NCBI GenBank assembly: GCA_043825875.1
Contig: JBDRRF010000057.1
Location: 24,240-88,239, forward strand
Length of the DNA: 64,000 nucleotides
Direction of reading: 5' to 3'
Source: Pseudomonadota bacterium
Lineage (GTDB): Bacteria > Desulfobacterota > Desulfobacteria > Desulfobacterales > RPRI01
The translations under genes and the position numbers were made by a program. This document shows positions 36,300 to 64,000 of this stretch, one piece after another. The stretch's first letter is position 1. Each line of letters begins with the position of its first letter. The notes beneath the pieces are model-generated. The model did no database searches and had not been told where the DNA came from. It was given only the letters and a program-made list of their open reading frames with translations.

Positions 36300-36442
36300 G
36301 AGCCACTTCCAAAATGTTTCAGCCTGGTCAAGCTCAAGGCGGGAGATAATTTCAACCACAGAAATACATTTAGTATTTCGAGGATTGAAATTTGAACCCA
36401 ACGCTTAAGATCGGCCAAAATGGGGCGTTTTGAAACTGGCTC
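36300..36442 (+). mobile_element. MITE copy 1 (diverged), TSD TTTT
   Basis: TIRs GAGCCACTTCCAAAATG / CGTTTTGAAACTGGCTC. Confidence 0.85.
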
Positions 36443-36627: not shown

Positions 36628-36769
36628 GAACCACTTTCAAAACGTTTCAGTTTGGTCAAGCTCAAGGCGGGCGAAAATTTTAACCACAGGAATACATTGA
36701 GTATTTCGAGGATTGAAATTTGAGCCCAACGAAGAGATCGGCCAAAATGGGGCGTTTTGAAACTGGCTC
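36628..36769 (+). mobile_element. MITE copy 2, TSD AACT
   Basis: 142 bp, same TIRs, AACT on both sides. Confidence 0.88.
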
Positions 36770-40161: not shown

Positions 40162-40303
40162 CAGCCAGTTTCAAAACGCCCCAGTTTGGCCGATCTCTGC
40201 GTTGGGCTCAAATTTCAATCCTCGAAATACTCAATGTATTCCTGTGGTTAAAATTTTCGCCCGCCTTGAGCTTGACCAAACTGAAACGTTTTGAAAGTGG
40301 CTC
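40162..40303 (-). mobile_element. MITE copy 3 (inverted), TSD TAAG
   Basis: Near-exact reverse complement of copy 2; TAAG at 40158-61 and 40304-07. Confidence 0.88.
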
Positions 40304-46899: not shown

Positions 46900-48510
46900 A
46901 TGCTTCGTGAACATCTTAAAAAAGCTCTTCGCTTTTATTTTATTACAGACGATTCGGCTCCAGCGCTTAAGCCGTTGGAGCAGGCGCAGATTGCGATAAG
47001 AGCAGGAGCCGGTATTATCCAGTACAGGAATAAATTATTTTCTCCCGTTTATTATAACGAAGCAAAAGCAATAAGAGATATTTGCAGATGCAACGGAGTT
47101 TTCTTTATTGTAAATGATAATATACTTCTTGCAAAACTTTTAAAAGCAGACGGAGTCCACCTTGGCCAGGATGATGAGCCTGCTTCTGCTGCAAGAATAA
47201 TTCTTGGCTTAGATGCTATTATCGGAACATCAGTTTCAAGCACTGACGAACTTTATAATACCGATCTTTCGGAGTGTGATTATATAGGAACCGGGCCTGT
47301 TTTTGCCACAAGTACCAAAAAAGACGCAAAAAAGGTGATCGGACTTTCAGGACTAAAATCCGTAACGGAACAGTCACCTGTTCCTGTTGTAGCAATTGGA
47401 GGGATAGATGCTTTGTCCGCCCCCTCTTGTTTTGATAACGGGGTAGCAGGCGTTGCTGTTATCAGCTCTGTTTCAAGAGCTTTTGATCCTATGCAAAGCG
47501 CTTTAAAGCTTGGAGCAGCCTGCTCTTCTTCTCCGCGCTTCTTTATTGAAAGCCCATGGAGTTCAGAATCAGGGCCTGGTGAATTCGGGCTTATTGAAAA
47601 CCTAATAAAAACCATCCCGGTAAATTCAAAAATAATAGTTTCCACCGGTGATGATGCTTGTCTTTTAACTTCTCTTTCAAATCCTGTAATTACTACTGAT
47701 ACGCAAAGAGAAGGGGTTCATTTCAGGCTAAACTGGCAAAGCCCTTATGAAATAGGAATCAAAGCAGTTGAAGTTACCTTAAGCGATCTTGCAGCAAGTT
47801 ATGCAAGGCCCGTATCGCTTTTCATCAATCTTTGTCTTCCCGCTTATGTTTCGGGGAGCATGATAGAAGAAATATATAAAGGCGCTCTTTTTACCTTAAA
47901 CAAATATGATTGCGCCCTTGCTGGAGGAAATGTTTCATCGGGAAGCGAACTTGCTCTTGATCTTTTTGCAGTAGGTGAAGCAAATATTGATATTTTCCCT
48001 AAACGTTCAAATGCTAAACCGGAATATGGACTATACTGCACCGGCCATTTAGGCCTTGCCCGTGCAGGACTTGAATTATTAAATAATAATGATTTGGCTT
48101 TCCCAGATCTTATTTTAAATTTCAAGTTTCCTAAAGCAAGATTTGATGCAGCCCTAATTCTTGCAGAAGCAGGAATCGACTGCGTTATGGATATAAGCGA
48201 CGGGCTTTCCGGTGATGCCGGTCATATTGCAAAAGCGTCGGAAGTAACAATAGAACTTGATCTTAAATCATGCCCTGTTTCTTCTTCTCTTTTATCATAT
48301 TGTCAAAAATATGAAAAGCGCCCCAAAGAAATAATAGCAAACGGTGGAGAAGATTACGAACTTCTTTTTGCTTGTCATCCAGATATTTACAAATTAATTG
48401 AAGAAAAGCTTAATACTTCTTTTCAGATAGGAAGATGTATTCCCTTTAATGGAAAATATATCATAAGCCCTTTTAAAATTGGCTCCTTTTGCCATGGGGA
48501 AAAATTATGA
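46900..48510 (+). CDS. Fused thiamine-phosphate synthase / thiamine-monophosphate kinase (ThiE-ThiL)
   Basis: QYR, VND, GVHLGQDD, AIGGI; then GEFGLI, GDDA, LSDLAA, DISDGL, GGEDYEL. Confidence 0.88.
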   Translation: MLREHLKKALRFYFITDDSAPALKPLEQAQIAIRAGAGIIQYRNKLFSPVYYNEAKAIRDICRCNGVFFIVNDNILLAKLLKADGVHLGQDDEPASAARIILGLDAIIGTSVSSTDELYNTDLSECDYIGTGPVFATSTKKDAKKVIGLSGLKSVTEQSPVPVVAIGGIDALSAPSCFDNGVAGVAVISSVSRAFDPMQSALKLGAACSSSPRFFIESPWSSESGPGEFGLIENLIKTIPVNSKIIVSTGDDACLLTSLSNPVITTDTQREGVHFRLNWQSPYEIGIKAVEVTLSDLAASYARPVSLFINLCLPAYVSGSMIEEIYKGALFTLNKYDCALAGGNVSSGSELALDLFAVGEANIDIFPKRSNAKPEYGLYCTGHLGLARAGLELLNNNDLAFPDLILNFKFPKARFDAALILAEAGIDCVMDISDGLSGDAGHIAKASEVTIELDLKSCPVSSSLLSYCQKYEKRPKEIIANGGEDYELLFACHPDIYKLIEEKLNTSFQIGRCIPFNGKYIISPFKIGSFCHGEKL

Positions 48511-49322
48511 AAACAGCTTTAACAATAGCAGGCTCAGACCCTTGTGGCGGTGCAGGAATACAGGCCGATCTTAAAACTTTCGCTGCTCATGGTGTTTACG
48601 GTACAAGCGTAATAACTGCTGTAACAGTACAAAACACTTTAAAAGTTTATAGCGTACAGGAGATCAATCCCGATATAGTATATGACCAGATCATATATCT
48701 CTTTGATGATATACGTATTGATGCAGTTAAAATAGGGATGGTTTCAAGCATAGAACTTATCGAAACAATTGCTGCCGCATTAAAAAAAGTCAAAGCTTTA
48801 GCAATTGTTCTTGATCCTGTTATGATTTCAAAAAGCGGATACAGTCTTTTAAACACTGATGCCGGAAATGCTCTTGTAAAAAATTTATTCCCACTTGCAG
48901 AAGTTGTAACTCCTAATATTTTTGAAGCCGAAGCTCTTACAGGAAGTAAAATATCAACGCTGAAAGAAATGAAACTTGCAGCAGCAAAAATATTAAATTT
49001 CGGTGCAAAGAAAGTGGTTGTTAAAGGAGGGCATCTTGAAAAAGAACAGGCAATAGATATACTGTTTGATGGAAACATCTATACGGAATTAACAGCGCAA
49101 AGAATAGAAACAAAAAACACTCACGGAACCGGCTGCACCTTTTCTTCGGCTATAGCTGCAAATCTTGCTAAGGGCATGGGCTTTAAAGAAGCCGTTTCAA
49201 ATGCAAAAATTTACATCTCCAAAGCTATAGAGCATTCACTTAATATCGGGCACGGTCATGGCCCAGTTGATCACTTTTTTAATTTTCCGTCAAATTTTCC
49301 CACTAAAGCGCCAATTACATGA
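48507..49322 (+). CDS. thiD: HMP/HMP-P kinase
   Basis: TIAGSD, GGAGIQADLK, DPVM, THGTGC. Confidence 0.95.
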   Translation: MKTALTIAGSDPCGGAGIQADLKTFAAHGVYGTSVITAVTVQNTLKVYSVQEINPDIVYDQIIYLFDDIRIDAVKIGMVSSIELIETIAAALKKVKALAIVLDPVMISKSGYSLLNTDAGNALVKNLFPLAEVVTPNIFEAEALTGSKISTLKEMKLAAAKILNFGAKKVVVKGGHLEKEQAIDILFDGNIYTELTAQRIETKNTHGTGCTFSSAIAANLAKGMGFKEAVSNAKIYISKAIEHSLNIGHGHGPVDHFFNFPSNFPTKAPIT

Positions 49323-49430
49323 CACCATTATCCTAAGCTTTATGCCAATAACACATGAAAACTATATTATATATGCAAATTTAAACAAATTTTATTTTAT
49401 ATTTTAATTGCTTATAATCAATAATATTGT

Positions 49431-49446
49431 TGGCACATTATATGCT
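49431..49446 (+). promoter_or_regulatory. Sigma-54 promoter ahead of the receptor array
   Basis: TGGCACATTATATGCT (GG-N10-GC). Confidence 0.7.
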
Positions 49447-49645
49447 GTTCACATCTATTTATAAGTAGATATAAATTGATAGTGCCGTAAAAAACCCAAC
49501 TCGTCATGCCGAGCTTAATCTGACATTAATAACTTATTTAATTAACTGGATATAGGCTATGGTAGCTATGATGAAAACTGGCATTTTACGTCTTAATATG
49601 AATTAGTTTGTTTGCCTTTATTTGGAAGCATAAAAAGTATGGGAT

Positions 49646-51745
49646 ATGCAAAATAACAGCCTTATTATAAATAATATTTCAAAATATATAAAAATCTCCT
49701 TAATTCTTAAATTAATCGGGGTATTACTATTTATTTCTTTAACTTTCCTGCCTGGCGTAGCATGGGTAAGTATATGCAATGCGGAAACAAAATCCACCGC
49801 TGACCTGACAGAGCTAAGTATCAGGGAGTTAATGGAAGTTGAAATTGAAATTACCACTGGTTCCAGAAAGAGCCAGACACTTGCAAATACCGCAGCAGCA
49901 GCTTTTGTTATCACACAGGAAGATATCAGACGCTCCGGCGTGACCAGTATTCCCGAAGCCCTGCGCATGGTTCCCGGATTGCAGGTTGCCCGAATAGACG
50001 CAAACAAGTGGGCCATATCATCTCGCGGATTTAACAGTCGCGTTTCCAATAAGCTGCTTGTGCTTATAGATGGGCGAACGGTTTACTCCCCTCTTTACAC
50101 TACTGTTTTCTGGGATATCCAGGATACCCTTCTTGAAGATATTGACAGAATAGAAGTAATCCGCGGGCCAGGCGCATCTTTATGGGGTGCGAATGCCGTA
50201 AACGGAGTTATAAATATCATCACCAAAAATACTAAAGATACAACCGGCGGGCTTGTAAGTGTGGGAGCCGGAAAGGAAGAAAGGGGCTTCGGAAGTTTTC
50301 GTTTCGGTGACAAGCTTGGCGAAAATGCGCACTACCGCATCTTTGGCAAATATGCCGACAGAGATGAATCCATATATTCATCAGGACGTGATGCCGCAGA
50401 TGACTGGGATATTTATACTTTAGGATTTCGAATGGATTGGAATCCAACAGAAACTGATTCCGTAATGTTTCAGGCAAATAATTCCAGTACGGATAGCGGC
50501 TCGGCAACAACTACCCCAAACTTGACACCGCCCTATTTAACAACTTTGGTAGAAGATAATCACAATGAGGACATAAACTTTCTTGTAAGATGGCAAAGTA
50601 TTTTTTCGAACACATCGGAAATGATTCTTCAGTTATATTATGACAGAACAAAACAAAATCTGTCTATAGTTGGCGAAACAAGAGATACATACGATCTGGA
50701 TTTTCAACACCGGATTTCCCCATTAAAAGATCATGAGATTATATGGGGACTCGGGTACCGGCTTACAAAAGATAATATAAAGCCTTCCTGCAATGTATCT
50801 ATTGATCCGAACAGTCGCACCGATGATCTTTTAAGTGCGTTTGTACAAGATGATATAAAAATATTTGAAGATTATCTGAGGTTAACCATTGGTGCAAAGT
50901 TTGAATACAATGATTATACAGGTTTTGAATTCCAGCCTAATATACGTGCACTATGGACACCTGATAAACAAAACTCTATATGGGCATCTTTTTCAAAGGC
51001 AATCAGAACACCTTCAAGAGCCGAAAGTAATGCAAGGGTTAATTTTTCTTTACTGCCCCCCGGTATTCCCCCAAACTCATCAGGGCTCCCCATGCTTCTA
51101 CAAAATATTCCCAATGATAATCTTAAATCCGAGATCCTATATGCCTATGAAATAGGCTACCGGAATCAGATAAGCGACTTAATTTCAATGGATATCACCG
51201 CTTTCTATAATAAATATAATAACCTCAGGTCAACCAATTTGGATTTTACGGCTGTATTTTTTGAATCTGATCCTCTTCCGTCTCATCTTGTAGCACCCAT
51301 ATTGCTTGACAACGATATTCATGGGCATACTTATGGCGTAGAAGTATATGGGCAATGGCAGCCTTTTGCATGGTGGAAAATCAAACCGGCTTATTCCTTT
51401 TTTAATATTAACCTTACAAAGTCTTCCGGAAGCTATTCTATTGAATCACTTGACAATGCAGCTCCAAGGCATCAACTATCTTTACGATCTAACATGGATC
51501 TTCCCATGAATCTTGAGCTTGACCTGTGGCTACGTACTGTTGACGATCTGCCGGTTATAAATATTGACGGATATTGTATGGTGGATGCCCGCTTAGGGTG
51601 GAAGCCCACTCAAAATCTTGAATTATCTCTTGCAGGACAAAATATTTTTGACAACCAGCACAAGGAGTTTAATGACTCAGTTCTGAATTTAGTTTCTACC
51701 GAGGTGGAGCGTACATATTATTTAAAGGTTACATGGCATTTTTAA
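49646..51745 (+). CDS. TonB-dependent receptor 1
   Basis: Plug motifs ALRMVPG, IDGR, IEVIRGP...GVINIIT; terminal WHF. Confidence 0.93.
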   Translation: MQNNSLIINNISKYIKISLILKLIGVLLFISLTFLPGVAWVSICNAETKSTADLTELSIRELMEVEIEITTGSRKSQTLANTAAAAFVITQEDIRRSGVTSIPEALRMVPGLQVARIDANKWAISSRGFNSRVSNKLLVLIDGRTVYSPLYTTVFWDIQDTLLEDIDRIEVIRGPGASLWGANAVNGVINIITKNTKDTTGGLVSVGAGKEERGFGSFRFGDKLGENAHYRIFGKYADRDESIYSSGRDAADDWDIYTLGFRMDWNPTETDSVMFQANNSSTDSGSATTTPNLTPPYLTTLVEDNHNEDINFLVRWQSIFSNTSEMILQLYYDRTKQNLSIVGETRDTYDLDFQHRISPLKDHEIIWGLGYRLTKDNIKPSCNVSIDPNSRTDDLLSAFVQDDIKIFEDYLRLTIGAKFEYNDYTGFEFQPNIRALWTPDKQNSIWASFSKAIRTPSRAESNARVNFSLLPPGIPPNSSGLPMLLQNIPNDNLKSEILYAYEIGYRNQISDLISMDITAFYNKYNNLRSTNLDFTAVFFESDPLPSHLVAPILLDNDIHGHTYGVEVYGQWQPFAWWKIKPAYSFFNINLTKSSGSYSIESLDNAAPRHQLSLRSNMDLPMNLELDLWLRTVDDLPVINIDGYCMVDARLGWKPTQNLELSLAGQNIFDNQHKEFNDSVLNLVSTEVERTYYLKVTWHF

Positions 51746-51795
51746 CAGGATATGCACCATATTTAAATATCGCAGCAGTTGTTACTTATAATATT

Positions 51796-52353
51796 ATGAA
51801 TAAAACTATAAAAAATATCCTCCGGATTATTTTGGTTCTGATGATATCCGTATTGATTCCGATATCGGAAAGCTATGGATCGGAATCATCAAAAATGGAA
51901 CCCAAACTGAAGGCGGCATTTATTTATAATTTTGCCAAATTTGTCGACTGGCCTGCCAAAGACAGTAAAGGCAAATCATCCCAACCTTTTGTAATAGGTG
52001 TACTTGGCAATGACCCCATAACCGAAGAACTTTTAGCTATTGAAGGAAAACTCATAAAGGGCAGAAAAATGCTTGTCAGAACACTGTCGGATGTTCAAGA
52101 CATAAAAGGAAGTCAAGTTATTTTCATAAGCGCTTCCAAGAAAAATAATCTTACTAGTATTTTGAATGCTATTAAAAACAAAGATATACTTACTATCAGC
52201 GATATGAATAATTTTGTTGATAACGGTGGAAACATTGGATTTGTCAGAATAGACAATAAGATACGTTTTGATATTAACTTAATAACAGCCAAAAAATCCA
52301 ATTTAAAAATCAGATCGGATCTTTTGTCGCTTGCAAGAAAAATTATAAATTGA
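51796..52353 (+). CDS. YfiR/DUF4154-family periplasmic protein
   Basis: Signal peptide, KAAFIYNFAKFVDWP, IRFDIN, LLSLA. Confidence 0.88.
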   Translation: MNKTIKNILRIILVLMISVLIPISESYGSESSKMEPKLKAAFIYNFAKFVDWPAKDSKGKSSQPFVIGVLGNDPITEELLAIEGKLIKGRKMLVRTLSDVQDIKGSQVIFISASKKNNLTSILNAIKNKDILTISDMNNFVDNGGNIGFVRIDNKIRFDINLITAKKSNLKIRSDLLSLARKIIN

Positions 52354-52445
52354 GGAGATAGTAAAAAGTTATCAAAATTTAGATAGAATCATAATTAGCT
52401 CAATTCTATCTTGAATTTACTATTTTTAAACCAAAAAGGTGCGTT

Positions 52446-54518
52446 ATGTTAAAAAATATTCTTCGTATGAGGAAGACAGGGGGTAATGCAAAATTTTACC
52501 CGATTATGAAATTCATCTTTGTTCTGCTATGTATTGCTTCAGCCTTGTTTCCCTGCACTGTACTGGTTGATACATGCTATGCACAAAGAGCCTCCTCCAC
52601 TGACCTGACCGAGCTAAGCATCCTGGACCTGATGGAAATCGAAATTACCACGGGTTCCAGAAAGAGCCAGAAACTTGCAAATACTGCCGCTGCCGCTTTT
52701 GTTATCACACAGGAAGATATCAGACGCTCCGGGGTAACCTCTATTGCCGAAGCTTTGCGTATGGTTCCCGGTTTACAGGTTGCCAAAATTGATGCAAACA
52801 AATGGGCCATATCATCACGCGGATTCAACAGCCGTTATGCAAATAAGCTGCTTGTACTGATGGATGGACGTTCGGTTTATTCTCCTCTTTATTCCGGTGT
52901 TTTCTGGGATGTTCAGGACACTGTTCTTGAAGATATCGACAGAATAGAAGTAATCCGTGGGCCCGGTGCTGCTTTGTGGGGAGCAAATGCGGTAAACGGT
53001 GTTATAAATATCATCACAAAAAGCACTCACGAAACAAAGGGTGGACTTGTAAGCGCCGGAGCAGGAAAGGAAGAAAGAGGTTTCGGGAATTTCCGCTTCG
53101 GAGATTCGCTTGGCGAAAATGCCAGCTACCGCATTTTTGGCAAATATACAGACAGAGATGAATCCAAATTAACATCGGGACGTGATGCTTCAGATGACTG
53201 GGATATTTATACATTTGGATTTAGAACGGATTGGAACCCAACGGCAACTGATTCTGTTTTGTTTGAAGGAAACCACTATCGTTCAGACGATGGACAAACA
53301 ATGACTCTTCCTGATATATCTCCACCATATTCGCAAACTTTTAATGAAGATGCCAAATCCGATGGCATAAACTTTCTTGCCAGCTGGGAACGGTACTTAT
53401 CAAACACATCGGATATGAAGCTACAGATATATTATGACAGATCGAAGATAGAACAAGCGGCACTTAAAAATATAACAGATACATACGACCTGGATTTTCA
53501 GCACCGCTTTTCTCCCCGGAATAAACATGAAATTATATGGGGCGTTGGATACCGGCTTATAAGCTTTGACACAACTTCCTCCCCCACTGTCATAGTTGAC
53601 CCTGAAAACCGCACAGATGACCTTTTAAGCGCATTTGTTCAAGATGATATCACAATAGTGAAAGATCATCTGAGACTGACTCTTGGCGCAAAGTTTGAAC
53701 ACAACGATTACAGCGGCTTTGAATTCCAGCCCAATATCCGGACACTCTGGACTCCTGATAAACAAAACTCCATATGGGCATCATTTTCAAGGGCGGTAAG
53801 AACCCCTGCAAGAATCGAACATGATGTGCGTACTAATTTATTTATGATTCCGCCCGGCACACCTCAAAATCCATCAGGTCTTCCAATGGTTATATCAAAT
53901 ATTGCTACCGGTGATTTCAAGCCGGAGGTCCTCTATGCCTATGAAATGGGGTATAGAAATCAGATAAGCAGTTCAGCTTCAATAGATATTGCGGCATTCT
54001 ACAACAGATATAAAAATCTTAGATCACATAATTATGATACCCCGTTTCCTGTGTTTACTTCCATTGTGCCTCATATTTTGCTGCCTGTCTCGATCGATAA
54101 CGATAATAACGGACACACATACGGCATGGAAGCATTTGCGGAAATAAAACCTTTTTCATGGTGGAAAATCAAACCGGCTTACTCCTTTATACATGTAAAC
54201 CTGTCGGAACCTGCAGAAGACTCTTCCGACGAAGCACCAAGACATCAATTCTCTTTTCAATCCAACATGGATCTTCCCATGAATCTTGAGCTTGATCTTT
54301 GGCTTCGTTATGTTGACGATCTTTCGGATTCGGATGTGGACAGCTACAGTATGATTGATGCCCGTTTAGGATGGAAGCCTTTTGAAAATCTTGAATTATC
54401 TCTTGTGGGGCAAAATATTTTTGACAGCCAGCACCAGGAATTTAAAGAAGACTATTTGAATTTTGCTACATACGAGGTGGAACGCACAGTATATATTAAG
54501 GCTACCTGGCATTTTTAA
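52446..54518 (+). CDS. TonB-dependent receptor 2
   Basis: Paralog of receptor 1; terminal WHF. Confidence 0.93.
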   Translation: MLKNILRMRKTGGNAKFYPIMKFIFVLLCIASALFPCTVLVDTCYAQRASSTDLTELSILDLMEIEITTGSRKSQKLANTAAAAFVITQEDIRRSGVTSIAEALRMVPGLQVAKIDANKWAISSRGFNSRYANKLLVLMDGRSVYSPLYSGVFWDVQDTVLEDIDRIEVIRGPGAALWGANAVNGVINIITKSTHETKGGLVSAGAGKEERGFGNFRFGDSLGENASYRIFGKYTDRDESKLTSGRDASDDWDIYTFGFRTDWNPTATDSVLFEGNHYRSDDGQTMTLPDISPPYSQTFNEDAKSDGINFLASWERYLSNTSDMKLQIYYDRSKIEQAALKNITDTYDLDFQHRFSPRNKHEIIWGVGYRLISFDTTSSPTVIVDPENRTDDLLSAFVQDDITIVKDHLRLTLGAKFEHNDYSGFEFQPNIRTLWTPDKQNSIWASFSRAVRTPARIEHDVRTNLFMIPPGTPQNPSGLPMVISNIATGDFKPEVLYAYEMGYRNQISSSASIDIAAFYNRYKNLRSHNYDTPFPVFTSIVPHILLPVSIDNDNNGHTYGMEAFAEIKPFSWWKIKPAYSFIHVNLSEPAEDSSDEAPRHQFSFQSNMDLPMNLELDLWLRYVDDLSDSDVDSYSMIDARLGWKPFENLELSLVGQNIFDSQHQEFKEDYLNFATYEVERTVYIKATWHF

Positions 54519-54524
54519 TAGTAT

Positions 54525-54585
54525 AAAAATGCTTGTCAGAACACTATCGGATGTTCCAGGCATAAAAGGAAATAATAACTATCAG
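54525..54585 (+). pseudogene. Internal yfiR scar
   Basis: AAAATGCTTGTCAGAACACTATCGGATGTTCCAGGCATAAAAGGA matches about 52065-52110. Confidence 0.8.
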
Positions 54586-54682
54586 GGAGAGGTGATAGCA
54601 AAAAGTTATCATAATTTTAATAGAATCATAATTAGCTCAATTCTATTTTAAATTTACTATTTTTAAACCAAAAAGGTGCGTT

Positions 54683-56776
54683 ATGTTAAAAAATATTCTT
54701 CGTATGAGGAAGACGGGGGGTAATGCAAAATTTTACCCGATTATGAAATTCATCTTTGTTCTGCTATGTATTGCTTCAGCCTTGTTTACCTGCACGGTAC
54801 TGGTCGATACATGCTATGCACAAAAAATATCATACACCGACCTTACCGAGCTAAGCATCCAGGACCTGATGGAAATCGAGATTACCACGGGTTCCAGAAA
54901 AAGCCAGAAACTTGCAAATACTGCCGCTGCCGCTTTTGTTATCACGCAGGAAGATATCAGGCGCTCCGGGGTAACCTCTATTGCCGAAGCTTTGCGTATG
55001 GTTCCAGGTTTGCAGGTTGCCAAAATTGATGCAAACAAATGGGCTATATCCTCCCGCGGCTTTAACGGGCATTATGCCAATAAGCTTCTTGTATTAATGG
55101 ATGGCCGTACTGTTTACACGCCTCTTTTTTCCGGGGTTTTCTGGGATATTCAGGATACTCCTTTGGAAGATATTGACAGAATAGAAGTAATCAGAGGACC
55201 CGGGGCAGCTTTATGGGGAGCAAATGCTGTAAACGGAGTTATTAACATAATCACAAAGAGCGCCCATGACACAAAAGGAGGGCTTGTCAGCGCGGGAGCA
55301 GGAAAGGAAGAAAGAGGTTTTGGAACTTTTCGTTACGGTGATTCAATTAACGAAAAGGCTTCCTACAGATTCTTTAGCAAATATTTTAACAGGGATGAAT
55401 CAAAAGTTTCATCGGGTCGTGATGCCACAGATGACTGGGATATTTATACATTAGGATTTCGAACGGATTGGAACCCGACAGCCACGGATTCTGTAATGTT
55501 TCAGGGAAATCACTTCCATGCTGATGAAAGCCAGTCGTATTCTTTTCCATCTCTGACTGCACCCTATTCATTTCCTGTTGATGAAGTCACTAAAACCGAT
55601 GGAGTAAACTTTCTTTATAGGTGGAACCATTTATTCTCAGACAAATCGGATATGACACTGCAACTATATTACGACAGAACAAGAATACAGCAAACAGTGG
55701 TTAGTGAAACAAGAGACACATATGATTTTGATTTTCAACATAGGTTTTTCCCCTGGGAAAAACACGAACTCATATGGGGCATAGGTTACCGGATTACAAG
55801 CGATAATATAAAATCTTCATACATGATATCTGTTGATCCTAAAAGCCGTACGGATGACCTATTAAGCACATTTGTACAAGATGATATCACAATAGTGGAA
55901 GATCATCTCCGGTTGACCCTTGGCGCAAAGTTTGAGTACAACGATTATAGTGGTTTTGAATTCCAGCCCAATATCCGAGCACTCTGGACCCCTAATAAAC
56001 AAAACTCCATTTGGGCATCATTTTCAAGGGCTGTAAGAACACCTTCAAGAGCTGAACATGATGCGCGTTTGAATATTCTTATGATTCCCCCTGGCTTACC
56101 TCCAAACATATCAGGCATGCCCATGACTATATCTAATATTCCAAACGATGATTTTAAATCTGAGACCCTCTATGCCTATGAAATCGGCTATCGCAATAAT
56201 ATAAGCGAAACAATTTCAATGGATATTACTGCTTTTTATAATAAATATAAAGATCTCAGGTCATATACAATTAATGCCGCCTCTACATTTTTAGAGCTTT
56301 CTCCTCTTCCGCCCCACCTGGTGTTACCTGCCACAATAGGTAACGATATTCATGGGCATACATATGGCATAGAAGTATCTACAGAATGGAATCCGATTTT
56401 GTGGTGGATGATTAAACCGGCTTACTCATTTTTACATATGAACCTGTCGGGATCTCCGGATGGCTTTACTAGTGGAACTTTTGACACCGCAGCTCCAAGA
56501 CATCAATTCTCCATAAGATCTTCTATGGATCTACCAATGGATATTGAGTTTGACCTGTGGCTTCGTTATGTTGACGATCTTCCGGTCATAAATATTGACG
56601 GATACTGCACGATGGATCTTCGCTTGGGATGGAAGCCTACTCAAAACATTGAATTATCTCTTGTAGGGCAGAATATTTTTGACAACCAACATCCTGAATT
56701 TCAGGAAGAACTTTTAAACTTAGATAGAACAGAAGTGGAACGTACTTTTTATCTTAAGGTAACCTGGCGTTTTTAG
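54683..56776 (+). CDS. TonB-dependent receptor 3
   Basis: Leader and N-terminus almost identical to receptor 2; terminal WRF. Confidence 0.93.
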   Translation: MLKNILRMRKTGGNAKFYPIMKFIFVLLCIASALFTCTVLVDTCYAQKISYTDLTELSIQDLMEIEITTGSRKSQKLANTAAAAFVITQEDIRRSGVTSIAEALRMVPGLQVAKIDANKWAISSRGFNGHYANKLLVLMDGRTVYTPLFSGVFWDIQDTPLEDIDRIEVIRGPGAALWGANAVNGVINIITKSAHDTKGGLVSAGAGKEERGFGTFRYGDSINEKASYRFFSKYFNRDESKVSSGRDATDDWDIYTLGFRTDWNPTATDSVMFQGNHFHADESQSYSFPSLTAPYSFPVDEVTKTDGVNFLYRWNHLFSDKSDMTLQLYYDRTRIQQTVVSETRDTYDFDFQHRFFPWEKHELIWGIGYRITSDNIKSSYMISVDPKSRTDDLLSTFVQDDITIVEDHLRLTLGAKFEYNDYSGFEFQPNIRALWTPNKQNSIWASFSRAVRTPSRAEHDARLNILMIPPGLPPNISGMPMTISNIPNDDFKSETLYAYEIGYRNNISETISMDITAFYNKYKDLRSYTINAASTFLELSPLPPHLVLPATIGNDIHGHTYGIEVSTEWNPILWWMIKPAYSFLHMNLSGSPDGFTSGTFDTAAPRHQFSIRSSMDLPMDIEFDLWLRYVDDLPVINIDGYCTMDLRLGWKPTQNIELSLVGQNIFDNQHPEFQEELLNLDRTEVERTFYLKVTWRF

Positions 56777-56848
56777 CAATATCCGTATGGTATTTTAATG
56801 ATTTTGCATAACCAATTTTAAATATTATAAGACATTACAACTAATAAT

Positions 56849-57409
56849 ATGGCTAATAAGGCAATAAAATATATCCTTTGGGTTATCCTGGTTCTGATGA
56901 TATCCGTATCAATCGCGATATCGGGAAGCTATGGATCAGAATCATCAAAAATGGAACCCAAACTGAAGGCGGCATTTATTTATAACTTCGCCAAATTTGT
57001 CGACTGGCCTGCCAAAAACAGTAAAGGTAAGTCATCCCAACCGTTTGTAATAGGCGTACTGGGCAATGACCCCATAACCGAAAAACTTTTAGCTATTGAA
57101 GGAAAACTCATAAAGGGCAGAAAAATGCTTGTCAGAACACTATCGAATGTTCAAGACATAAAAGGATGCCAAGTTATTTTTATAAGTGCTTCAGAGAAAA
57201 ATAATCTTACTAGTATTTTGAAAGCTCTTAAAAACAAAGATATACTTACGGTAAGCGATATGAATAATTTTGTTGATAATGGTGGAAACATTGGATTTGT
57301 CAGAATAGATAATAAGATACGTTTTGATATTAACTTAATAACAGCCGAGAAGTCCCATTTAAAAATCAGGTCGGATCTTTTGTCGCTTGCAAGAAGAATT
57401 ATAAATTGA
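56849..57409 (+). CDS. YfiR/DUF4154-family protein, copy 2
   Basis: Near-identical to 51796-52353. Confidence 0.88.
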   Translation: MANKAIKYILWVILVLMISVSIAISGSYGSESSKMEPKLKAAFIYNFAKFVDWPAKNSKGKSSQPFVIGVLGNDPITEKLLAIEGKLIKGRKMLVRTLSNVQDIKGCQVIFISASEKNNLTSILKALKNKDILTVSDMNNFVDNGGNIGFVRIDNKIRFDINLITAEKSHLKIRSDLLSLARRIIN

Positions 57410-57418
57410 GAATGTATT

Positions 57419-59521
57419 ATGCAAAATAATAGCCTGCTTATAAAAAAGACAGCAAAAGATATAAAAATTTCCTTGATTCTTAAATCCATCGGGATTTTGT
57501 TATTTATTTCTTTAACTTTTTTGCCCGGCATGGCATGGGTAAGTCTATGCAATGCGGGAACAATATCCACCGCTGAACTTACAGAGCTAAGTATCAGGGA
57601 GTTAATGGAAGTTGAAATTGAAATTACCTCAGCTTCCAGAAAAAGCCAGACACTTGCAAATACCTCCGCTGCTGCTTTTGTAATCACGCAGGAAGATATC
57701 AGACGCTCAGGGGTAACCAGTATACCAGAGGCTCTGCGCATGGTTCCCGGTTTGCAGGTTGCTAAAATTGATGCAAACAGGTGGGCCATATCATCGCGCG
57801 GATTCAACGGCCGTTTTTCCAATAAGCTGCTTGTGCTTATGGATGGCCGAACGGTTTACTCACCTCTTTACACCCTTGTTTACTGGAGTATTCAGGACAC
57901 CGTTCTCGAAGACATAGACAGAATAGAAGTAATCCGGGGGCCCGGTGCGGCTTTATGGGGTGCCAATGCTGTAAACGGCGTTATAAATATCATCACCAAA
58001 AACTCCAAAGATACAACCGGTGGGCTTATCAGCGCCGGAGCCGGAAAGGAAGAAAGAGGCTTTGGGAGTTTTCGTTTCGGTGATTCGCTTGGTAAGAATG
58101 CATACTACCGTATTTTTGGCAAATATGCCGACAGGGATGAATCCAAATTTATATCGGGACGTGACGCAGCAGATGACTGGGATGTTTATACTTTCGGATT
58201 TCAAACAGATTGGACTCCAACAATAATGGATTCCGTGATGTTTCAGGGAAGTAATAGTCGTGCAGATATTGGCCAGACAATCACTTTTCCATCCTTCACT
58301 CTGCCCTATTCAACAACTTATGAAGAAGATGAATTATACGATGGCGTAAACTTTCTTTTAAGGTGGAACAGGATTTTATCAAATACTTCAGATATGACTC
58401 TTCAGATATATTATGACAGGACAAAACAACAGCAAACAGTAATCAGCGAAACAAGAGATACATATGATCTGGATTTTCAGCACCGCTTTTTCCCCTGGTA
58501 TAACAATGAAGTGATATGGGGTTTCGGATACAGGCTTACAAGTGATAATATAAAATCTTCCTTAATAGTATCTGCTGATCCGGACAGTCGCACTGATGAT
58601 ATTTTAAGCGCATTTATCCAAGACGATATTACATTAGTGGAAGATCATCTCAGGCTGACTCTTGGCGCAAAGTTTGAACACAATGACTATAGCGGTTTTG
58701 AATTCCAGCCCAATATCCGGGCACTTTGGACTCCCGATAAACAAAACTCAATATGGGCGTCATGGTCAAGGGCGGTAAAAACGCCTTCACGAGGCCAACG
58801 TAATTTGCGTAATATCAAAGGGGTACTTCCCCCCGGTATTCCTCCAAACACATCAGGCTTTCCCATGATAATATCAAATACTATCAGTGATGATCTTGAT
58901 TCCGAAATTCTTTATGCTTACGAAATTGGGTATCGCAATCAGATAAATGAATCGCTTTCAACTGATATTGCTGTATTCTATAATAAATATGAAGACATCA
59001 GATCATATACTTTGGATTATACTGCTATATTTTTTGAACCTTCTCCTTCTCCACCACACCTTGTGTTACCCTTTGTTATTGGTAATGATGTTTATGGGCA
59101 CACATACGGAATGGAAGTATCTGCGGAATGGAAACCAGTATTATGGTGGAAAATCAAACCGGTTTACTCATTTTTGCATATGAATCTAAGGTCGAAAAAT
59201 GCAGAGCCATCTTTAACTAATGCTCTTGACACTGCGGTTCCAAGGCATCAGCTATCTTTTCGATCTAACATGGATCTTCCCATGAATCTGGAACTTGATC
59301 TTTGGCTTCGTTATGTGGATGAACTTTCTAATACTGATATTGATAGCTATTGTATGATAGATGCGCGTCTGGGCTGGAAGCCCACTCCAAGTATAGAATT
59401 ATCTCTTGCGGGACAAAATATTTTTGACGACAGACACCAGGAATTTAAAGAAACCTTTGTAAATTACAGTGAAACCGAGGTAGAACGCACATTTTATTTT
59501 AAGATTACATGGCGTTTTTAA
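57419..59521 (+). CDS. TonB-dependent receptor 4
   Basis: N-terminus of the receptor-1 type (MQNNSL); terminal WRF. Confidence 0.93.
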   Translation: MQNNSLLIKKTAKDIKISLILKSIGILLFISLTFLPGMAWVSLCNAGTISTAELTELSIRELMEVEIEITSASRKSQTLANTSAAAFVITQEDIRRSGVTSIPEALRMVPGLQVAKIDANRWAISSRGFNGRFSNKLLVLMDGRTVYSPLYTLVYWSIQDTVLEDIDRIEVIRGPGAALWGANAVNGVINIITKNSKDTTGGLISAGAGKEERGFGSFRFGDSLGKNAYYRIFGKYADRDESKFISGRDAADDWDVYTFGFQTDWTPTIMDSVMFQGSNSRADIGQTITFPSFTLPYSTTYEEDELYDGVNFLLRWNRILSNTSDMTLQIYYDRTKQQQTVISETRDTYDLDFQHRFFPWYNNEVIWGFGYRLTSDNIKSSLIVSADPDSRTDDILSAFIQDDITLVEDHLRLTLGAKFEHNDYSGFEFQPNIRALWTPDKQNSIWASWSRAVKTPSRGQRNLRNIKGVLPPGIPPNTSGFPMIISNTISDDLDSEILYAYEIGYRNQINESLSTDIAVFYNKYEDIRSYTLDYTAIFFEPSPSPPHLVLPFVIGNDVYGHTYGMEVSAEWKPVLWWKIKPVYSFLHMNLRSKNAEPSLTNALDTAVPRHQLSFRSNMDLPMNLELDLWLRYVDELSNTDIDSYCMIDARLGWKPTPSIELSLAGQNIFDDRHQEFKETFVNYSETEVERTFYFKITWRF

Positions 59522-59571
59522 CAGGATATGTACCATGTTTAAATATTGCAGCAGTTGCTACTCATAATTTG

Positions 59572-59856
59572 ATGATTGTCAGGCCATTATTGGACATTAA
59601 TAAAATAAAAGGATGCCAAGCTATTTTCATAAGCGCTTCAGAGAAAAATAATCTTAATAGTATTTTGAACGCTATTAAAAACAAAGAAATAGTTACTATC
59701 AGCGATATGAATAATTTTGTGGATAACGGTGGAAACATTGGATTTATCAGGATAGAAAATAAGATACGTTTTGATATTAACTTAATAACAGCCCAAAAAT
59801 CCCATTTGAAAATCAGATCGGATCTTTTGTCGCTGGCAAGAAGAATTATAAAATGA
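59572..59856 (+). pseudogene. N-terminally deleted yfiR
   Basis: Upstream DNA matches that of yfiR1, but signal peptide and the KAAFIYNF half are missing. Confidence 0.8.
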
Positions 59857-59988
59857 GAAGGTTTTCATTCCTTCAGCTTTATCTTTAAAAGACCTTCCTT
59901 TACCCTGATATCCTCAACACCATCAGAAAAAGTCTTCCAGAAGCCATCATTGTATTTAAAAGTGGGATTAAAGTTAATAATTGATTTT

Positions 59989-60762
59989 CTAATCACTTGA
60001 AATATGCGCATAAGCATTATGATTATGAATGGATTCAAAGTTTTCAGCACTTACGGAAAACCAGATTATGTTATCATCTTTTTTTATTTTTGCGGCAACA
60101 TCACGCACAATATCTTCAACAAACTTTGGATTGGAAAAAGCCCTTTCCGTTACACTTTTCTCATCTACCCGTTTTAAGACAGAAAAAACATCGCAGGAAG
60201 CTGAACTTTCAACAAGCTCTATCATATCTTCCATCCAGATAAATTTTTTAAACCTTGTAGAAAGCCTCACTTCTCCCCTTTGGTTGTGTGCTCCGATTTC
60301 GCTTATTTCCTTAGAACAGGGGCAAACAGATGATATTGGAACAATAACTTCAGATACGATATCGATTTTATCACTGGGATCACTTGATCCTATAATACGG
60401 CAGGTATAATCCATAAGGCCTGGAGCATTGCTTACCGGGGCTTTTTTTTCTATGAAATAAGGAAAAGTGACTTCGAGATGTGCTGATTCTGCATTCAGAT
60501 GTTTTTTCATCTGATTTAATATGGTCGCAATTTTTTTTAATGACACTTCGTCATGCAGGAATAGATGAAGGAGTTCCACAAAACGGCTCATGTGTGTCCC
60601 CTTATATTTATGGGGCAAATCAACGTACATGTTGATCGTAGCAACGGTATTCTGAACCCTGTTTTGCCTGTCAAGAACAGTAATTGGGTAACGAATGTTT
60701 TTTATACCAACCTTATTGATCGATATATTTCTGTAATCTCTCTGACCCTGTACATCTTTCAT
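59989..60762 (-). CDS. folE2: GTP cyclohydrolase IB
   Basis: KGTHMSRF, CPCSKEIS, AHNQR, FVED, ESIHNH. Confidence 0.95.
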   Translation of the reverse strand: MKDVQGQRDYRNISINKVGIKNIRYPITVLDRQNRVQNTVATINMYVDLPHKYKGTHMSRFVELLHLFLHDEVSLKKIATILNQMKKHLNAESAHLEVTFPYFIEKKAPVSNAPGLMDYTCRIIGSSDPSDKIDIVSEVIVPISSVCPCSKEISEIGAHNQRGEVRLSTRFKKFIWMEDMIELVESSASCDVFSVLKRVDEKSVTERAFSNPKFVEDIVRDVAAKIKKDDNIIWFSVSAENFESIHNHNAYAHISSD

Positions 60763-63862: not shown

Positions 63863-64000
63863 GAGCCACTTTCAAAACGTTTCAGTTTGGTCAAGCTCAA
63901 GGCGGGAGAAAATTTCAACCACAGGAATACATTGAGTATTTCGAGGATTGAAATTTGAGCCCAACGCAGAGATCGGCCAAAATGGGGCGTTTTGAAACTG
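63863..64000 (+). mobile_element. MITE copy 4, cut by the window end
   Basis: GAGCCACTTTCAAAACG start, near-identical to copy 2; left flank AACT. Confidence 0.85.

Follow-up and report, generated by a model that had tools for sequence, protein, structure and literature searches.

In the YfiBNR system of Pseudomonas aeruginosa, a periplasmic DUF4154 relay, YfiR, stands between an OmpA-type outer-membrane lipoprotein, YfiB, and a CHASE8-HAMP-GGDEF cyclase in the inner membrane. A different route is taken by FecA-FecR-FecI and FpvA, in which (PMC9249621) signals from the surface travel inward from an outer-membrane receptor with a plug, by way of an N-terminal extension beside its TonB box, in this case a folded domain of about 80 residues, to an anti-sigma/extracytoplasmic-function (ECF) sigma pair. 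A further set of parts exists as sequence models in NCBIfam, namely the TOL_0244 receptor (NF053590, cut-off 645 bits), the TOL_0243 YfiR-like protein (NF053591, 125 bits) and a YfiR-like-associated kinase (NF053592, 194 bits). We analyzed a 64,000-nucleotide stretch of a Desulfobacterales genome (assembly GCA_043825875.1, contig JBDRRF010000057.1, positions 24,240 to 88,239 of the forward strand; hereafter the window), which carries four TonB-dependent receptors interspersed with YfiR-like genes at positions 49646..59856. We propose, with a probability of roughly 0.6, that this array is a sensor-detached tandem expansion of the TOL_0244/TOL_0243/CHASE8 front end, in which four receptors share a pool of YfiR through a 16-residue tail and probably convey different surface signals to a CHASE8 hybrid kinase encoded on another contig, C79.

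The array lies between thiD and folE2 and, as claimed in the initial annotation, contains four intact receptor open reading frames (ORFs), each with Plug and TonB barrel domains (Pfam) and 66–72% identical in pairs. All are on the + strand and exceed the NF053590 cut-off: R1 (699 residues; 49646..51745; 658.6 bits), R2 (690 residues; 52446..54518; 666 bits), R3 (697 residues; 54683..56776; 693.4 bits) and R4 (700 residues; 57419..59521; 652.1 bits). The same annotation had described four receptor-yfiR units, of which the relay half did not hold up. Only two yfiR genes are whole, both on the + strand and encoding YfiR-like periplasmic proteins: Y1 (185 residues; 51796..52353; 145.1 bits against NF053591, and a PF13689 match), whose start we set by alignment instead of using position 51733 of the ORF list, and Y3 (186 residues; 56849..57409; 149.7 bits). 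What follows R2 is a 47-nucleotide remnant from the middle of yfiR (54525..54571, + strand), which is not a gene, and Y4 (59509..59856, + strand) is a 5'-deleted yfiR, whose Pfam match covers positions 55–143 only and whose 75.1 bits fall below the cut-off. In Y4 the spacer runs into an internal methionine, and the leader, helix 1 and the first 63 mature residues are gone (leaders were assigned by eye and not with a predictor); given the loss of leader and helix 1, Y4 is likely a pseudogene. Y1 and Y3, previously called nearly identical, agree at 90% over their full length and at 146 of 157 positions in the mature part, and the ratio of nonsynonymous to synonymous divergence (dN/dS) of 0.13–0.17 for these intact relays indicates purifying selection. 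As had been noted, no kinase, cyclase or tonB gene follows, the next gene being folE2 on the opposite strand.

The array is real. Depth of sequencing run X1, which may be the source sample, was 26–41 in 28 of the 30 bins along the contig, so that the copies appear neither collapsed nor inflated, and the sister genome G008 has, at the same site, thiD, a receptor and a yfiR, then a contig break, and then the order R-Y-R-R-Y-folE2. Mis-assembly was ruled out on these two grounds. Runs X2 and X4 contained relatives only; one X2 contig of low depth connects an R4-type end with another relay end and the start of an R4-type receptor, a hint of a longer array to which we give no weight. Neither the absence of the array from the RNA data sets listed nor the near-absence of aligned reads in an RNA run of the same study bears on its expression. 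R4 had no close counterpart in the tree among the contigs taken from G008. Across the genus, the thiD site is filled by receptors and relays in the genome analyzed here (G000) and in G008, holds a deletion remnant in G011, and, at each of the other 12 thiD loci (15 in all), shows different genes.

How the receptors would reach the relay is suggested by structure prediction. The AlphaFold2 model of mature R3 (predicted local distance difference test, pLDDT, 88.7) is a 22-strand barrel with a plug and a low-confidence N-terminal tail, the strands having been counted by hand from the DSSP list, and its fold is nearest to PirA, Cir and BtuB (template modelling score 0.75–0.79). The tail is present in all four receptors. 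In R3 its mature residues 7–22 (54839..54886, + strand) form the predicted YfiR-docking segment, including the TonB-box position, as judged by co-folding, alignment and a tail profile; in the family profile, the conserved tail motif directly precedes the strand aligned with Cir residues 7–12, which we take to be the TonB box of Cir. Co-folding of Y3 with R3 residues 1–34 scored 0.82, while the best of three controls scored 0.03; the mark used for such co-folds is reached by 116 of 157 solved complexes and by 2 of 215 mismatched pairs, rough counts obtained with our own alignments. The runs shared at least 88% of their contacts, with a partner pLDDT of at least 61. Predicted contacts join tail residues 7–22 to helix 1, strand 7 and helix 4 of YfiR, and the 20 YfiR residues involved are identical in Y1, Y3 and Y5 (the relay of the C79 operon, described below) and more conserved across the family than other positions (0.75 vs 0.56). 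At a threshold of 10 bits, the tail profile matched 69 of the 79 family rows (a partly circular count with some repeated rows) and both non-family receptors that adjoin a yfiR, as compared with none of the 9 rows, 8 of them distinct, for other TonB receptors; the tail peptide had no sequence match in the PDB. The receptor tail is thereby predicted to bind YfiR. The earlier suggestion that a receptor takes the place of YfiB agrees with this prediction, with the predicted contact lying in the short tail in front of the plug and not in the plug, and that of a shared YfiR was supported computationally by the identical contact surface.

By analogy, the array would work most like YfiBNR with the receptor tail in YfiB's place. 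The relay gives a profile match to the solved YfiR (E 8e-10), the sensors of the family are CHASE8-HAMP membrane proteins, and an outer-membrane partner is predicted to pair a strand with strand 7 of YfiR, in line with PMC4655355 and PMC4887326. On our own mapping, the predicted site (helix 1, strand 7, helix 4) neighbors the YfiB site described there and only partly overlaps it. The differences are substantial. In place of an OmpA lipoprotein there is a beta-barrel receptor that carries a short tail, and the sensors are histidine kinases and not CHASE8-HAMP-GGDEF cyclases. YfiR has two cysteine pairs, according to PMC4655355, whereas the mature relays hold no cysteine (Y1) or one (Y3), so its disulphides are absent here. 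Y1 and Y3 reach only 32–37 bits against the model of YfiR proper (NF053586, cut-off 85), and the array contains no OmpA-domain lipoprotein of the YfiB kind, the search for YfiB having been confined to the array. Membership of YfiBNR proper was rejected on the NF053586 score, the cysteines, and the types of partner and sensor. Fec-type signaling was rejected as well: Pfam gives the receptors only Plug and barrel domains, with no anti-sigma/ECF sigma neighbors, the extension measures about 18 residues, where Fec-type receptors have a folded domain of about 80, the partners here are a soluble YfiR-like protein and a kinase, and no Fur-box match was found.

The claim that the array has no cognate sensor holds locally and fails genome-wide. 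The genome, which is 99.8% complete, contains four DUF4154 matches and two CHASE8 proteins, neither of which adjoins an array yfiR; YfiN-like sensors had been expected elsewhere, and those found have the CHASE8 domain but are both histidine kinases, with no cyclase among them. Contig C79 carries a complete operon of receptor R5, relay Y5 and a 756-residue CHASE8-HAMP-PAS-HisKA-REC kinase, whereas contig C76 carries an orphan 963-residue CHASE8 hybrid kinase (HisKA, two REC, Hpt) followed by a REC-PAS-GGDEF-EAL protein. A sixth family receptor stands alone on contig C15, with no yfiR beside it. All six receptors pass NF053590, and Y1, Y3 and Y5 pass NF053591. Within the genome, R5 and Y5 are the closest kin of the array genes. 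The array and operon receptors form one in-genus clade (support 99/100; unrooted with respect to direction), with array receptors 67–72% identical to R5, and Y3 is 63–71% identical to the relays of C79-type operons and at most 50% identical to any relay outside the genus. One YfiR-like database match, labelled Desulfobacterium, shows 68% identity, which hints at a lineage of sulfate reducers. Given the shared receptor clade and the likeness of Y3 to operon-type relays, sequence comparison indicates that the array and the C79-type operon are of the same stock.

Three further loci were recorded alongside these. The operon of G013 (L118:9407-11336) keeps the promoter motifs, yfiR and kinase and has no receptor between cooS and yfiR. 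In G011 (L119:7725-10385), a yfiR is followed by a TonB receptor that lies outside the TOL_0244 family yet still has the tail motif; the stretch examined contains no CHASE8 sensor. The orphan receptor on C15 precedes a 765-residue protein without Pfam or NCBIfam match (L006:4724-9961), and both are about 96% conserved in G008.

The initial annotation had put the locus forward as a candidate for an undescribed system, which at the level of databases it is not, all three families being listed in NCBIfam; the same families occur here, the receptor-yfiR order recurs and the full trio is found on C79, the difference being that four receptors stand apart from any sensor. The trio is also common. At E <= 1e-150, 80 of the 401 genomes surveyed in the class have a receptor match, which in 39 of these exceeds the NF053590 cut-off (three candidates per genome were scored, so that receptor copy numbers per genome are minimum values). 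The number of matching database proteins is at least 7,935, with at most 55% identity after the first 15. Yet our literature search, whose coverage left out most subscription journals, found no functional or mechanistic study of the receptor/YfiR-like/CHASE8 trio. We examined 49 receptor loci outside the genus, 9 from one survey and 40 from the class survey, the latter chosen for a high score or a tandem look; four loci from a separate genome-contig scan were kept out of this tally. A yfiR and a CHASE8-type sensor were both present in 45 of the 49, and two or three receptors occurred in 7, all of which include a sensor. An Opitutales contig shows the order R-Y-R-Y-R-Y-sensor. Within the genus, the 5 genomes out of 17 that have DUF4154 are also the 5 that have CHASE8. 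An arrangement with several receptors to one sensor is therefore a recurring one, and the unusual feature of this array is that it stands apart from any sensor. Its parts are already catalogued by family, and the locus is a sensor-detached, recombining array of a catalogued but unexplained envelope-signaling front end.

Detachment raises the matter of which kinase is served, and the array may signal mainly to the orphan C76 kinase, with cyclic di-GMP as the output given the REC-PAS-GGDEF-EAL protein that follows it. This kinase pair occurs without adjoining receptor or yfiR in G000, G008, G011 and G016, which are the same four genomes that have a sensor-less receptor-yfiR unit, intact or remnant, while G013 has neither in the stretches examined; moreover, the five best full-length matches of the C76 kinase among the examined loci all adjoin a receptor and yfiR. 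The five related genomes are, however, not independent, the shared promoter motifs described below are missing upstream of the C76 kinase in all four genomes, and the relay Y3 resembles those of C79-type operons more closely than any outside the genus. We consider it unlikely that C76 is the main target, noting that the C79 and C76 routes are not mutually exclusive.

A second alternative concerns the ligands. All copies might recognize the same one, their loops differing through drift, gene conversion and phage or bacteriocin pressure, which would make the array a source of antigenic or dosage variation. Whole receptor pairs show a dN/dS of 0.15–0.29 at a synonymous divergence between paralogues of 0.6–0.9, and variation is indeed enriched in extracellular parts, as had been predicted (P 2e-5; variable columns make up 163 of 271 outside, as against 93 of 228 in the membrane strands plus turns, on our own topology assignment with nine residues per membrane strand). 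By region, dN/dS rose from 0.11 for the plug through 0.18 for membrane strands to 0.36 for the parts outside, with no loop above 0.66, and this concentration of variable sites at the surface under constraint is compatible with a common ligand, as are the facts that copy number and order differ between the sister genomes and that TonB receptors serve, per PDB titles, as colicin/microcin receptors. The plug, described before as nearly invariant, is conserved (80% of its 122 columns are invariant among the four), except for two short segments. These segments, which presumably face the ligand as in FhuA/BtuB, vary from copy to copy at sites that the family as a whole conserves, and most of these differences are seen again in the counterparts. 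Receptor types also persist across species, with identities to counterparts of 88–89% for R1, 88% for R2, and 92% (G008) and 85% for R3. Since both the persistence of types and the recurring plug differences argue against one ligand for all, we regard this alternative, too, as improbable.

Segment exchange is nevertheless part of the picture. The reported pairing of leaders, 1 with 4 and 2 with 3, was confirmed by sequence comparison. The upstream spacer and first ~120 codons of R2 look recently converted from R3: over codons 1–40, R2 and R3 are 98% identical in nucleotides, vs 78% between R2 and its own counterpart, and the run test for conversion was clear for R2/R3 only (P 0.0005), weak for R1/R2 (0.02, in 1 of 10 pairs) and negative elsewhere. 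On these alignments, a recent conversion accounts for the pairing of leaders 2 and 3. In G008, the second receptor has an R4-like leader joined to an R1-like body. The barrel of the operon receptor is 71–82% identical between G000 and G008 while the neighboring genes are 86–96% identical, which suggests that this barrel has been replaced, a point that would also fit the same-ligand alternative. Of the claim that the receptors are diversified, divergence under purifying selection with segment exchange stands, whereas positive selection was not shown.

The receptors could alternatively be ordinary TonB-dependent importers that have diverged for metal chelates or vitamins, with yfiR as a passenger that is being lost. 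They have a full transporter fold and a TonB-box-like strand in the usual place, two tonB genes over cut-off exist elsewhere in the genome, two of the four yfiR copies are destroyed and the sixth receptor stands alone. On the other hand, purifying selection acts on the intact relays, both the tail and the surface that it is predicted to bind are conserved, the array has neither an ABC transporter nor a tonB gene next to it, the promoter matches those of motility operons, and no match to the Fur consensus was found within three mismatches, which is a weak test in this lineage. We judge this explanation to be quite unlikely. That the array is a decaying by-product of duplication without current role, as the two broken yfiR copies and the frameshifted G011 remnant at the same site might suggest, is very improbable and largely excluded by the selection data, given four receptor frames that are intact despite their synonymous divergence, dN/dS below 0.3 and the retained promoter motifs.

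The promoter region points at a possible link to motility. A sigma-54-type -24/-12 site (GG-N10-GC; 49430..49446, + strand), which matches the consensus, is the sole match to this pattern on the + strand of positions 49201-60000, and 108 bp upstream of its -24 GG lies a palindrome (49309..49324, + strand) that matches GTCA-N6-TGAC at 7 of 8 positions here and at 8 of 8 in G008, a candidate enhancer for a sigma-54 activator. The palindrome stands 98, 108 or 120 bp before the sigma-54 site in 8 of 10 in-genus units (shuffles, P <= 0.01 each), and the C79 operon has this combination in common with the array. In PMC4641369, yGTCA-N6-TGACr is predicted as the site of the FlrA/FleQ-like flagellar activator DVU2894 of Desulfovibrio, the same palindrome likewise lying about 100 bp before a sigma-54 site; that motif is itself a prediction for Desulfovibrio (PMC4641369), and the activator here would be one of 39 candidates, this being the number of sigma-54 activator domains in the genome. 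Genome-wide ranking of promoters by weight matrix is circular for the receptor sites, and consensus patterns with a reversed control were used instead. With the strict combined pattern, 18 matches turned up, spread over 8 of the 17 genomes, and the reversed control had 0. Of the 18, 8 precede an operon leading to flgB/fliF, 3 precede PilZ-cheA-cheD, 5 stand upstream of receptor/yfiR units and 2 upstream of a ParA-like gene, the orthologous sites among them not being independent. In G000, 4 of the 9 perfect intergenic palindromes precede motility or chemotaxis operons, and among 116 intergenic sigma-54-like sites, 6 have a palindrome of at least 7/8 at 90–125 bp, compared with 4, 0 and 0 in three other distance bands, a modest contrast within one genome. 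The flagellar gene fliF is present in all five relay-bearing genomes and in 8 of the 17 genomes of the genus. Scans for sigma-70 promoters and terminators were at chance level (39 vs 36 and 7 vs 8, respectively).

Taken with the analogies to YfiBNR and to TonB-box movement in FecA/BtuB, the proposed expansion could operate as follows. An external ligand would free the receptor tail, in keeping with the ligand-induced release of the TonB box in TonB-dependent receptors (PMC9249621), the freed tail would capture YfiR at the outer membrane, and the kinase would then lose its repression by YfiR. TonB would be a competitor for the same tail strand and might return the switch to its resting state. 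We hold the odds on this direction of signaling to be about even. Expression of the module would go with the motility program, and its role would be to tune swimming or settling.

Several points weigh against the reading of the array as a detached front end for the C79 kinase, every step of which rests on computation. The co-fold covers one receptor-relay pair (R3 tail/Y3), and its score may owe something to likeness, given that YfiB-YfiR complexes have already been solved; the family tail is also found on the orphan C15 receptor, which has no adjoining yfiR. Both CHASE8 kinases score below the NF053592 cut-off of 194 (C79 177.6, C76 167.2), though both pass Pfam CHASE8, and the orphan C76 kinase remains a rival partner. 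Variation among the paralogues mirrors family-wide constraint, with a similar order of conservation, and the proportion of nonsynonymous differences (pN) was slightly above that of synonymous ones (pS) in only 2 of 129 windows, so that selection for new ligands is not shown; positive selection was not found in these comparisons, which were pairwise counts only. The array is dispensable, since G011 keeps only a deleted, frameshifted remnant at its site and a receptor above the NF053590 cut-off is lacking from 13 of the 16 congeners. As to the promoter, the window's own 7/8 palindrome is too degenerate for the strict pattern, the five strict matches before receptor/yfiR units are training-set sites, and beyond the genus 1 receptor of 58 had the palindrome nearby and 1 of 60 had the sigma-54 pattern; with the motifs nearly absent there, the link between promoter and motility may be local to this lineage.

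If the detached-front-end reading is true, outer-membrane receptors can reach kinases via a soluble relay, a path separate from the known sigma-factor route, and receptors can multiply independently of their sensor. The locus also makes the trio testable, as it offers a 16-residue peptide, a 20-residue surface and four natural receptors for ligand comparison, and the promoter link to motility points at a phenotype. More tentatively, the array may exemplify a third cell-surface signaling route, in which the TonB-box segment itself would dock the YfiR-like relay and TonB and relay would compete for it; a detachable, recombining repertoire with swappable barrels and a constant tail would then feed one or two CHASE8 kinases, share its transcription with the flagellar regulon and form, in the outer membrane, the counterpart of a chemoreceptor set. 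We think this broader proposal possible, with the odds against it.

A number of minor observations were made during this work. A 142-nucleotide element with inverted ends, which looks like a miniature mobile element, is present in about 249 copies of at least 120 nucleotides in G000 (e.g. C79:197450-197591), including copies on C57 at window positions 36300-36442, 36628-36769, 40163-40303 and 63863-64000, and in three receptor promoters an inserted copy separates the sigma-54 site from the start of the receptor. Behind the same palindrome on G000:C38 (L158:846-4140), a small binding-protein-like gene, a gene for a 397-residue protein without Pfam match and one for a methyl-accepting chemotaxis protein lie in a row and may constitute another envelope-spanning sensory trio. 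A sigma-54-like site and a perfect GTCA-N6-TGAC palindrome also occur upstream of a glycogen phosphorylase gene (G000:C14, L155:4053-6590), and a fusion of REC, an NMT1-like binding domain and CheW (G000:C83, L157:1504-3465) lies about 400 bp behind a perfect palindrome. Two other fusions were found, one on C15 (L006:594-2789), where a gene beside an ABC transporter joins lipocalin-like (CrtC-type) domains to a polyprenyl synthetase domain, and one within the window (46900-48510), where thiamine-phosphate synthase is fused to an AIR-synthase-related (ThiL-like) domain in an arrangement conserved across the genus.

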